Assembly (NCBI RefSeq): GCF_030013205.1
Contig: NZ_CP122648.1
Reading direction: 5' to 3' (one strand)
Origin: Escherichia coli
Lineage (GTDB): Bacteria > Pseudomonadota > Gammaproteobacteria > Enterobacterales > Enterobacteriaceae
Length of the DNA: 64,000 nucleotides
This document shows, one piece after another, positions 1-3,000 of the stretch (position 1 is the stretch's first letter; the number at the start of each line of letters is the position of its first letter). Position numbers: made by a program.

Positions 1-3000
1 TGGCCTGTCGGAAATTCTGATTGGTCAGGGCGATATTACTACCGCGGCTAAACCGACCTCTATTGCCAAATTTGACCTGATCCCGCGCGGTCAGGTGCCG
101 CCAAATCCTTCTGAACTGTTGATGAGCGAACGCTTTGCCGAACTGGTGAACTGGGCGAGTAAAAACTATGACCTGGTGTTGATTGATACGCCGCCGATTC
201 TGGCAGTGACCGATGCGGCAATTGTTGGTCGTCATGTCGGAACCACGTTAATGGTGGCGCGTTATGCGGTCAACACATTGAAAGAAGTGGAAACCAGTCT
301 GAGCCGCTTTGAGCAAAATGGTATTCCGGTGAAAGGGGTGATTCTGAACTCCATCTTCCGCCGCGCCAGCGCGTATCAGGATTATGGCTATTACGAATAC
401 GAATATAAGTCGGATGCGAAATAACGACGCCTGCATTCGCACCGCCCCGTAGGCCGGATAAGGCGTTCACGCCGCATCCGGCAAGCAAACCAGCTCATAA
501 GCCGGGAGAACAACCTATGAAAGACAATCCGCTGATCTCAATCTATATGCCGACCTGGAACCGCCAACAACTGGCGATTCGGGCGATAAAATCGGTCCTG
601 CGCCAGGACTACAGTAACTGGGAGATGATCATCGTGGATGATTGCTCCACCTCCTGGGAACAGCTGCAACAGTACGTCAGCGCCCTCAACGATCCGCGCA
701 TCACTTACATTCACAACGACATTAACAGCGGGGCGTGCGCGGTACGTAACCAGGCGATTATGCTGGCGCAAGGGGAATATATCACCGGGATCGATGATGA
801 TGATGAATGGACACCCAACCGCCTGAGCGTCTTCCTCGCCCATAAACAGCAACTGGTCACACACGCCTTTTTGTACGCTAACGATTACGTTTGCCAGGGC
901 GAAGTCTATTCCCAACCGGCAAGTTTGCCGCTGTATCCCAAATCGCCGTATTCACGCCGCCTGTTCTATAAACGGAATATCATTGGCAATCAGGTCTTTA
1001 CCTGGGCATGGCGTTTCAAAGAGTGTTTGTTCGATACCGAACTGAAAGCGGCACAGGATTACGACATCTTCCTGAGGATGGTGGTGGAGTACGGCGAACC
1101 GTGGAAAGTGGAAGAGGCGACGCAGATTCTGCATATCAATCACGGTGAAATGCAGATCACCTCGTCACCGAAAAAATTCTCCGGATACTTCCACTTTTAC
1201 CGCAAGCACAAAGACAAATTTGACCGCGCCAGCAAAAAATATCAGCTGTTTACCCTCTACCAGATCCGCAATAAACGCATGACCTGGCGCACTTTGCTGA
1301 CGCTGCTGTCGGTGCGTAACGGCAAACGTCTGGCTGATGGTATTCGGGGGCGCTAAAGATGCTGGAAGATCTGCGCGCCAACAGCTGGAGTTTACGCCCG
1401 TGCTGCATGGTTCTTGCCTATCGCGCAGCTCATTTTTGTTCGGTGTGGCGCAAAAAGAACGTCCTCAACAATATTTGGGCGGCCCCGCTGCTGGTGCTGT
1501 ATCGCATTATCACCGAATGCTTTTTCGGTTATGAAATCCAGGCAGCCGCAACCATTGGTCGCCGTTTCACTATCCATCACGGTTACGCCGTAGTGATCAA
1601 TAAAAACGTGGTCGCGGGGGATGATTTCACCATTCGCCACGGCGTCACTATCGGCAATCGTGGTGCCGATAACATGGCATGTCCACACATTGGCAACGGC
1701 GTCGAACTCGGTGCCAACGTCATTATTCTTGGTGATATCACGCTTGGTAACAACGTCACCGTGGGCGCGGGCAGCGTGGTGCTCGACTCTGTCCCGGACA
1801 ACGCGCTGGTGGTGGGAGAAAAAGCGCGAGTGAAGGTAATTAAATGAATATTCTGCAATTTAATGTGCGACTGACGGAAGGCGGGGCGGCAGGTGTGGCG
1901 TTAGATCTCCACCAGCGTGCGCTGCAACAGGGGCTGGCGTCACATTTTGTCTACGGCTACGGCAAAGGCGGCAAAGAGAGCGTCAGCCATCAGAACTATC
2001 CGCAGGTCATCAAACATACGCCGCGGATGACCGCGATGGCGAACATTGCCCTGTTTCGTCTGTTTAATCGCGAACTGTTCGGCAATTTCAATGAGTTATA
2101 TCGCACCATTACTCGCACACCGGGTCCGGTGGTCCTGCATTTTCATGTGCTGCACAGCTACTGGTTGAATCTTAAGAGCGTGGTGCGCTTTTGCGAAAAA
2201 GTGAAAAACCACAAACCGGATATCACTTTGGTCTGGACGTTACACGATCACTGGAGCGTTACCGGACGCTGCGCCTTTACCGACGGTTGTGAAGGCTGGA
2301 AAAAGGGCTGCCAGAAATGCCCGACCTTAAATAATTATCCGCCGGTGAAGATTGATCGCGCACACCAGCTGGTGGCGGGCAAACGCCAGTTATTCCGTGA
2401 GATGCTGGCGCTGGGCTGTCAGTTTATTTCCCCCAGCCAGCATGTGGCTGATGCTTTCAATAGTCTGTACGGTCCAGGGCGTTGCCGGATTATCAATAAT
2501 GGCATTGATATGGCAACCGAAGCGATTCTGGCGGACTTGCCTCCGGTGCGCGAAACCCAGGGCAAGCCGAAAATCGCGGTGGTGGCGCATGATCTGCGTT
2601 ACGACGGCAAAACTAACCAGCAACTGGTACGCGAGATGATGGCGCTGGGCGACAAAATCGAACTGCATACCTTTGGTAAGTTCTCGCCGTTCACCGCTGG
2701 CAACGTGGTTAATCACGGCTTTGAAACTGACAAGCGCAAGTTGATGAGCGCGCTCAATCAGATGGATGCGCTGGTATTCAGTTCTCGCGTCGATAACTAC
2801 CCGCTAATTTTGTGTGAGGCGCTATCGATTGGCGTGCCGGTGATTGCCACCCATAGCGACGCGGCGCGGGAAGTGCTGCAAAAATCCGGCGGTAAAACCG
2901 TCAGTGAAGAAGACGTGCTGCAACTGGTCCAGTTAAGCAAACCGGAAATCGCGCAGGCGGTATTTGGTACCACGCTGGCTGAGTTCAGCCAACGCAGCCG

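Follow-up and report, generated by a model that had tools for sequence, protein, structure and literature searches.

A solitary y-type REP in the wzc-wcaA gap of the Escherichia coli colanic-acid operon

REPs are non-autonomous repeats associated with the RayT/TnpA_REP tyrosine transposase, and an E. coli K-12 genome carries about 600 of them (PMC8266576). In the y class, GTAG lies 5′ of a palindrome of about 35 nt with a conserved AA-GC mismatch; GTAG has a role in recognition by TnpA_REP, and T11 and G32 are the bases that contact TnpA_REP (RayT) (PMC8266576). The functions listed for REPs include mRNA stabilization and BIME-associated attenuation (PMC8266576, PMC12306157). In the capsule literature, a stem-loop attenuator has been described just after wzc (Rahn & Whitfield 2003, for K30, as cited in PMC3673037), and a stem-loop lies between wzc and wbaP in Klebsiella cps clusters (PMC3438125).

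Here, we analyzed a stretch of 64,000 nucleotides of E. coli DNA (contig NZ_CP122648.1; hereafter, the window), in which the initial annotation had placed a REP-like palindrome at positions 430-485, between wzc and wcaA. A REP does lie inside that span, which was generous: the element itself occupies 449-483 and is almost certainly a solitary y-type REP. It is an ordinary element of a kind already known, and the capsule literature contains earlier mention of a stem-loop after wzc.

Position, fold, and family of the element

The gap, its flanking genes, and the only other REP copy in the window comprise the following features.

422..424, + strand: wzc stop codon TAA, the end of ORF 95..424 (from the annotation)
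449..483, + strand: complete 35-nt element, GTAGGCCGGATAAGGCGTTCACGCCGCATCCGGCA, assigned as a solitary y-type REP (sequence read directly)
449..452, + strand: GTAG 5′ tag, strand-defining in REPs, directly abutting the stem at 453
453..482, + strand: imperfect palindrome with a 7-bp lower stem (GCCGGAT/ATCCGGC), an AA x GC mismatch, a 4-bp upper stem (GGCG/CGCC), and the loop TTCA
504..519, + strand: wcaA ribosome-binding site GGGAG (504-508; Shine-Dalgarno assigned by eye) and ATG (517-519) of ORF 517..1356 (from the annotation)
10853..10882, − strand: degenerate y-type REP copy with 3 mismatches, in the opposite orientation and without a CTAC tag; the sole other REP in the window

The wzc-wcaA gap comprises 92 nt (425-516) and contains the REP, which is thus extragenic. 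Past the wzc stop codon, 24 nt precede GTAG and 28 nt precede the hairpin's first paired base, and the end of the element is separated from the wcaA ATG by 33 nt. The gene names wzc and wcaA were confirmed by the RefSeq annotation of a strain that is identical over positions 1-1400 of the window, and the intergenic region is identical to that of K-12 MG1655, where it spans 2,133,398-2,133,489. The RefSeq annotation of MG1655 contains only CDSs at this locus; because it marks no repeats around rayT either, although REPs are evident there, the absence of an annotated REP is uninformative. A promoter scan of positions 1-1500, including the gap before wcaA, found no promoter-like site on the + strand, which implies that wcaA relies on read-through from upstream.

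The element runs in the order GTAG, GCCGGAT, AA, GGCG, TTCA, CGCC, GC, ATCCGGC, followed by A. A pattern search of the window located the 30-mer GCCGGATAAGGCGTTCACGCCGCATCCGGC, without a single mismatch, at + strand positions 453-482, and none were expected by chance from 100 dinucleotide-preserving shuffles. The inverted-repeat search returned two 14-nt arms (453-466 and 469-482) that are 86% complementary and spaced by 2 nt. When folded as RNA, the 35-mer reached −20.9 kcal/mol, compared to −10.0 ± 2.4 kcal/mol for its shuffles (z = −4.56), with 0 of 200 shuffles equaling it, and the hairpin accounted for 89% of the ensemble. In the predicted fold of 449-483, a 2x2 internal loop with AA facing GC separates a lower stem of 7 bp from an upper stem of 4 bp, which is capped by a 4-nt loop. 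Together with the genome-wide dispersal described below, the exact 30-mer, its paired arms, and the stability of the hairpin confirm the REP palindrome that the initial annotation had proposed for this gap. The whole 106-nt region folded barely better than its shuffles (z = −1.64). In the minimum-free-energy fold of 415-520, CGUAG (448-452, the upstream flank of the REP) pairs with CUAUG at 515-519, a stretch that includes the wcaA start codon; this pairing is missing from the centroid structure.

Membership in the REP family, also claimed earlier, held up in that all y-class sequence features that could be tested here were present. T at 11 and G at 32 are present if positions are numbered from GTAG, as we assumed. 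GTAG is read in the sense direction of the cps operon, so the element appears on this strand in the "REP" form and not in the inverted "iREP" form. Compared over 35 nt with the three y REPs that sit on both sides of rayT in MG1655 (L089:1802, 959, and 1701; the K-12 REPtron), the element shows 1, 2, and 2 mismatches, respectively. A BLAST search with a 1,400-nt query matched at least 175,853 places, spread over 5,425 of the 5,426 complete E. coli genomes; with no more than 40 pieces counted per record, the median was at least 35 places per genome among the matches listed, and the extra places covered only positions ~435-494 of the query.

Rfam contains no dedicated REP family, the sole REP-derived model being naRNA4, and is therefore unfit as a formal REP test. 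The Rfam search matched naRNA4 (RF02564) at 452-496 with 39.5 bits (E = 7.5e-5 in 3 kb) against a gathering score of 59.5. The alignment set a 45-nt stretch against a 77-position model, most of which was unmatched, and covered one REP module. The REP hairpin module is what the element has in common with naRNA4, a REP325-derived nucleoid-associated RNA; with a partial match 20 bits below the gathering score, membership in this family was rejected. Thus, the formal family search gave a subthreshold hit only, whereas the genome-wide BLAST support for a REP was overwhelming. The degenerate copy at 10853-10882 sits between ORFs 9395-10831 and 10912-12330, which we take, by cluster order, to be manC(cpsB) and manB(cpsG). 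Its hairpin is predicted at −17.5 kcal/mol, and a partial naRNA4 match of 34 bits spans 10821-10883.

Protein binding, ribosome stalling, and termination

Strong cleavage by gyrase needs BIME-2 (y + z2 pairs), and IHF binding needs the BIME-1 linker. A BIME consists of a REP and an inverted REP joined by a linker; the gap holds one REP, and the next REP-like match in the window is at 10853. The IHF consensus WATCAANNNNTTR was not found on either strand of 425-516, where the best match had 3 mismatches, and an IHF-binding BIME-1 (RIB/RIP) was rejected on this ground. Lacking both an IHF site and a second REP as partner, 449-483 is not a BIME. At the same site, the 177-nt allele of other E. coli strains is BIME-like, while the window allele consists of the y REP alone and has no linker motif.

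These observations bear on whether the REP is a DNA-level site for DNA gyrase, IHF, or DNA polymerase I that acts on supercoiling or nucleoid structure and not through RNA. Binding of gyrase, IHF, and the polymerase is among the functions attributed to REPs and BIMEs (PMC8266576, PMC12306157), and the partial match to a nucleoid-associated RNA points in the same direction. However, this copy is solitary, with the nearest other REP in the window 10 kb away, and the naRNA4 match amounts to a single module well under the gathering score, and we consider a DNA-binding role highly unlikely. Of the REP properties invoked by the initial annotation, binding of gyrase and IHF belongs to paired REPs, and this copy is solitary.

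REPs reportedly stall ribosomes and lead to trans-translation (Liang, Rudd and Deutscher 2015). Lying directly downstream of a coding gene, which is the usual geometry, the hairpin could act as a translational regulator of Wzc by stalling the terminating ribosome, eliciting trans-translation, and lowering the yield of Wzc. The rule for stalling, however, places the REP no more than 15 nt from the stop codon (Liang, Rudd and Deutscher 2015, as cited in PMC12306157), and both GTAG and the stem of the window allele, at 24 and 28 nt from the wzc stop, lie beyond this distance. We rejected the window allele as a REP of this translation-regulating type and attach very little credence to the mechanism here.

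A strong GC-rich hairpin directly after a gene is also what a classical Rho-independent terminator ending the wza-wzb-wzc transcript would present. The sequence following the stem, AAGCAAACCAGC, has no T/U run, and a terminator scan of positions 1-1500 found no terminator on the + strand. Because it lacks a U-tract, the hairpin is not an intrinsic terminator and would not terminate transcription on its own. Moreover, since no + strand promoter-like site was found before wcaA, full termination would silence about 16 downstream genes. The chance that this hairpin is such a terminator is, in our estimation, negligible.

Variation of the junction across genomes

Among the 4,476 E. coli genomes with this wzc end, the wzc-wcaA gap is polymorphic. 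Based on allele-specific junction queries, about 2,701 genomes carry the single-REP allele, about 1,122 carry the 177-nt BIME-like allele, in which a linker joins a z2-like iREP to a y REP, and about 650 carry others. Each of the three E. coli alleles, namely, A with 92 nt (the window allele), B with 128 nt, and C with 177 nt, retains at least one intact REP hairpin. In alleles B and C, the z2-like hairpin begins 11 nt past the wzc stop, within the 15-nt rule; the first hairpin thus lies within this limit in B and C but beyond it in the allele examined here. rayT was detected in 3,575 of 5,426 E. coli genomes.

We also compared the junction, with 1.2-kb flanks, across 79 Enterobacteriaceae species, with wcaA start codons re-derived for each. 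In 68 of them (86%), the gap is 56 nt or longer, and a local hairpin of −12.6 to −51 kcal/mol is predicted within it. The other 11 have a gap of 10 to 28 nt without a hairpin or repeat, indicating that colanic acid can be produced without a hairpin at this junction. The hairpins of the 68 species are built from several unrelated palindromic repeat families, namely, REP/BIME, short ERIC-like elements, CCCTCTCCC/GGGAGAGGG nested palindromes, and others. The CCCTCACCC/GGGTGAGGG elements may correspond to the published "boxC" family. boxC is listed, with no consensus given, in PMC2267715.

The polymorphism of the gap within E. coli is compatible with neutral turnover as much as with selection. It is a genuine, if unlikely, possibility that the REP is functionally neutral selfish or relic DNA that landed in a rare noncoding gap of a packed operon via RayT spread or recombination and persists as harmless, with no meaningful effect on cps expression. 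The variable REP content of the gap in E. coli, the unrelated repeat families carried at the junction by different genera (and nothing in 11 of 79 species), and the presence of rayT in only part of the genomes, consistent with a decaying mobile system, all argue for such neutrality. However, judging by what has been established for REPs in other operons, exonucleases are unlikely to pass an mRNA hairpin of −21 kcal/mol unhindered, and a strong hairpin is kept at this junction in every E. coli allele and in 86% of the species. In addition, the literature, as cited at second hand above, places an attenuator at this position.

A selected "hairpin slot" at the wzc-wcaA junction, which at least four unrelated palindromic repeat families came to occupy independently of one another, is a tentative idea that we regard as doubtful. 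Were it true, the natural turnover of REPs would adjust the dosage of Wzc and the ratio of export to synthesis strain by strain.

A putative role as operon-internal punctuation and comparison with known systems

We favor the reading that the REP hairpin serves as punctuation inside the operon, combining an exonuclease block with weak attenuation to set wza-wzb-wzc apart from the wca genes; based on the predicted fold and on analogy with other operons, we put its probability at roughly 0.6. The REP at 449-483 would be transcribed within the long wza-wzb-wzc-wcaA... mRNA and fold into a hairpin of about −21 kcal/mol. By blocking 3′→5′ exonucleases, this hairpin would allow the wza-wzb-wzc segment, which encodes the export machinery and the kinase, to outlive the glycosyltransferase segment. 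It may also weakly pause or attenuate transcription, with RfaH-modified RNA polymerase reading through, and the expected outcome would be more message for the export machinery than for the biosynthetic genes. At the DNA level, the REP could passively serve RayT as a substrate, which would account for the strain differences in the REP content of the gap.

Stabilization of mRNA by REPs is said to be established in other operons (Newbury/Higgins 1987), as is BIME-associated attenuation (Espeli 2001), the latter reportedly for paired and not solitary REPs. Our literature search, which did not reach Stevenson et al. 1996, found no experiment on the REP in the wzc-wcaA gap; full-text queries returned nothing for wzc, wcaA, and stem-loop and nothing relevant for REP and colanic acid.

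For annotation, the value of the element is small, as it is one of several hundred REPs and identical to the K-12 copy. Its interest would be as a marker of punctuation in the colanic-acid operon, between the export and kinase genes and the glycosyltransferase genes. The repeat content of the gap varies between E. coli lineages and between genera, which provides a natural allelic series, and this series offers a way to test whether REP hairpins set relative expression in a long RfaH-dependent operon.

As a y-type REP (PU; group 2, RayT/TnpA_REP), 449-483 shares with its family the length, GTAG, the bulge, T11/G32, the extragenic site, and the copy number, and no sequence difference sets it apart; the copy is solitary and not BIME-paired, as is common for REPs. 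The intercistronic REPs of malE-malF and hisJ-hisQ likewise form a hairpin between cistrons of one operon, without a U-tract and 3′ of genes with products that may be required in larger quantities, where a block to 3′→5′ decay is expected. Those stabilizers (Higgins 1982, Newbury 1987) were reportedly demonstrated experimentally and reportedly contain at least two REPs, whereas the wzc-wcaA gap contains a single one. The attenuator described for the K30 group 1 and Klebsiella cps clusters occupies the same place, after wza-wzb-wzc and before the serotype-specific or glycosyltransferase genes, in an operon that is also RfaH/ops dependent, and its hairpin has been proposed to cut read-through. 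In Klebsiella, the hairpin is described as a weak (−8.5 kcal/mol) structure of the Rho-independent type (PMC3438125). The gene downstream of the attenuator is wbaP in those clusters and wcaA here, and the likeness between the two is one of position.

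A y-type REP between wzc and wcaA

The non-coding gap between wzc and wcaA (92 nt) contains a palindrome that the initial annotation had read as REP-like and placed at 430-485. The surrounding sequence, window 441-490, is accgccccGTAGGCCGGATAAGGCGTTCACGCCGCATCCGGCAagcaaac. The 30-nt consensus cited in that annotation recurs at 453-482 without a mismatch, while none is expected by chance (100 dinucleotide-preserving shuffles of the window), and an inverted-repeat finder returned two 14-nt arms at 453-466 and 469-482. The full REP is the 35 nt at 449-483, made up of 5' GTAG, the palindrome and a terminal A; the range first proposed therefore contained the element but also took in 19 nt of plain spacer. 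The intergenic siting was borne out by our ORF calls, with an upstream fragment ending at 424 (C-terminal peptide ...YEYEYKSDAK) and a downstream ORF of 279 aa starting at 517, and by the annotation of E. coli CFSAN018748, which is 100% identical over window 1-1400, names these ORFs wzc and wcaA and continues with wcaB, wcaC, wcaD and wcaE. The gap sequence does not differ from that of E. coli K-12 MG1655.

E. coli REPs fall into three classes, y (35 nt), z1 (29 nt) and z2 (37 nt), each consisting of GTAG followed by an imperfect palindrome whose stem is broken by a conserved AA-GC mismatch; K-12 carries about 600 copies, commonly paired as BIMEs (PMC8266576). When the sequence and its fold were read against that class description, all y features were present:

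449-452, + strand: GTAG tag, adjoining the stem
Lower stem, 7 bp: GCCGGAT/ATCCGGC
Internal mismatch: AA opposite GC
Upper stem, 4 bp: GGCG/CGCC
Loop: TTCA

Three y REPs flank MG1655 rayT, the gene for the REP-associated tyrosine transposase, and the element has 1, 2 and 2 mismatches to them. We regard the assignment of 449-483 to the y class as virtually certain.

Copies and other elements in the window

To describe its dispersion, a 1,400-nt query containing the REP was compared with 5,426 complete E. coli genomes. It matched at least 175,853 places in 5,425 of them, with a median of at least 35 places per genome among the matches listed and at least 40 pieces in 1,924 records. In matches without the wzc-wcaA locus (rows H18-H20 of the search) the similarity was confined to query positions 435-494, so that REP-only matches are dispersed through these genomes. 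The REP family was described in 1982-84. Rfam has no entry for REPs as such. A formal family search thus succeeded through genome-wide BLAST matches but not through Rfam, where the REP325-derived model naRNA4 matched 452-496 at 39.5 bits, below its gathering score of 59.5 (E = 7.5e-5 in a 3-kb search, 0.0016 over the whole window).

The whole-window Rfam scan gave one other REP-like match, at 10821-10883, and because it is the only one, the copy at 449-483 is solitary and outside any BIME. A pattern search resolved this match to a degenerate REP (hairpin -17.5 kcal/mol) in the gap 3' of an ORF ending at 10831, presumably manC/cpsB from the cluster order. It is listed here with the other elements recorded in the window.

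10853-10882, opposite strand: second, degenerate y-type REP; 3 mismatches, CTAC tag lost
10906-10955: algC RNA motif (RF02929), 78.2 bits, just downstream of the degenerate REP
20559-20597, + strand: JUMPstart RNA element (RF01707), 60 bits, above gathering score
43319-43442, - strand: Histidine operon leader, 131.6 bits, above gathering score
46181-46255, + strand: STnc240, 68.2 bits, above gathering score
47841-47964, + strand: STnc490 Hfq-binding sRNA, 140.6 bits, above gathering score

The ORF that follows the algC motif is presumably manB/cpsG. The JUMPstart element lies between an ORF end at 20301 and a + strand ORF run starting at 20672, and we presume that it heads the O-antigen cluster, in which case the window would contain two RfaH-dependent operons.

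The hairpin and its proposed role

Read as sense-strand RNA, the 35-mer has a folding energy of -20.9 kcal/mol, compared with -10.0 +/- 2.4 for shuffles (z = -4.56), and the hairpin accounts for 89% of the ensemble. It is retained in both the MFE and the centroid structure of its 106-nt context, a region whose overall stability barely exceeds that of shuffles (z = -1.64). A further pairing in the MFE fold of 415-520 joins CGUAG (448-452, the GTAG tag and the base preceding it) to CUAUG (515-519, spanning the wcaA start codon) and encloses the hairpin; the centroid structure lacks this pairing, which is probably of no significance.

In K-12 and in the window, this REP is the only strong stem-loop directly 3' of wzc. 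A scan of window 1-1500 found no promoter-like site on the + strand, and therefore wcaA and the genes following it must be read from upstream. Elsewhere, protection of upstream mRNA against 3'->5' decay is established for REP hairpins, and attenuation of transcription for BIMEs (both listed in PMC8266576 and PMC12306157), and a passage of PMC3438125, second-hand for this operon, describes a Klebsiella stem-loop in the wzc-wbaP interval. We propose, with a probability of roughly 0.5 to 0.6, that the hairpin acts as operon-internal punctuation, both exonuclease barrier and weak attenuator. It would block exonucleases and weakly attenuate transcription in a factor-dependent manner, an effect that polymerase modified by RfaH would override. 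The outcome would be more wza-wzb-wzc message than wca message.

Two other modes of action are disfavoured. Binding at the DNA level finds no IHF consensus in the gap, where the best match has 3 mismatches. Stalling of ribosomes at the wzc stop would operate within 15 nt of the stop, according to the passage of PMC12306157 that summarises Liang et al., but the hairpin starts 28 nt after it (24 nt counting GTAG), and this mechanism is thus not predicted for the window allele.

An intrinsic terminator was also considered and is disfavoured, since the stem is followed by AAGCAAACCAGC, without a T run, and the + strand of window 1-1500 yielded no terminator in a terminator scan.

The junction in E. 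coli and other Enterobacteriaceae

Alignment of five strains revealed at least three E. coli alleles of the gap, with differing REP content. Counts are junction-specific megablast matches at >=80% query coverage; this wzc end is present in 4,476 of the 5,426 complete genomes.

Alleles of the wzc-wcaA gap
Allele A, 92 nt: one y REP; window, K-12, RM9088; left junction in 2,701/5,426 genomes
Allele B, 128 nt: z2-like inverted REP fused to the right half of a y REP, with a longer right flank; 23AR0303 (L003:624-752, equivalent to window 425-516); with rarer forms, ~650 genomes by subtraction
Allele C, 177 nt: z2-like inverted REP (CTAC intact), half y REP with duplicated flank, complete y REP; 2012C-4221 (L004:624-800, likewise equivalent to window 425-516), strain W, Z0117EC0148; own junction in 1,122 genomes

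The z2-like inverted REP of allele B is GTCGGATGCGATGCTGACGCATCTTATCCGAC, its tag mutated to CCTC in 23AR0303 and an intact CCTAC in comparison locus L008; the label z2-like is our assumption. The repeats of allele C make up a BIME-like array with a folding energy of -53.5 kcal/mol. No allele lacks an intact hairpin. In alleles B and C the first hairpin, that of the z2-like inverted REP, begins 11 nt 3' of the wzc stop codon, inside the 15 nt reported to stall ribosomes, compared with 28 nt in allele A; Wzc output would be predicted to differ between strains accordingly. Megablast with MG1655 rayT (L089:1138-1635) matched 3,575 of the 5,426 genomes, 1,615 of the best matches at just 90-95% identity, and REPs occur in essentially every genome; judged from these matches, rayT appears dispensable or divergent in about one third of strains.

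A WcaA scan with one genome per species gave 80 Enterobacteriaceae loci, in 79 of which the wzc stop and wcaA start were located, with gaps of 10-347 nt. The gap is 10-28 nt and lacks a hairpin in 11 species (Leclercia, Silvania, Cedecea, Pluralibacter, Pseudescherichia and related isolates); in the other 68 it is at least 56 nt long and holds a local hairpin with an energy between -12.6 and -51 kcal/mol. A hairpin at the junction is thus not indispensable. These 11 species, together with the polymorphism of the site in E. coli, favour the main rival to punctuation, a neutral selfish insertion, which we consider possible but distinctly less probable.

What fills the gap varies with the lineage. 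In Citrobacter and Salmonella it holds REPs or BIMEs, in either orientation. Nested CCCTCACCC..CCCTCTCCC..GGGAGAGGG..GGGTGAGGG palindromes, which we take to resemble the boxC family, occupy at least 28 loci (Enterobacter, Lelliottia, Pseudocitrobacter, Phytobacter, Kluyvera and others); they sit directly upstream of position ~1200 in the other-species loci (L009-L087), and where they are in tandem (L030, L036, L069) gaps reach 347 nt and fold at ~-200 kcal/mol. A ~70-nt element with arms ..CGAGTTGCAGGAA..GCCAACGCA.ATGCAACTTGAAGTATGAC.., presumably akin to a short, internally deleted ERIC/IRU element, fills the gap in Citrobacter sp. Cu233 (L050), C. braakii (L081) and a Raoultella MAG (L083). 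Other hairpins occur in Kosakonia, Franconibacter and some Kluyvera. Again and again, the junction is filled from the palindromic repeats that the host genome carries.

The one mildly new angle is this convergent occupancy, taken with the allele-specific distance from the stop codon; it is a hypothesis and not a discovery, and we consider it rather unlikely to hold. The window REP itself is already known: it belongs to an established family, its site is identical to that of K-12, and a stem-loop at this position is already in the literature.
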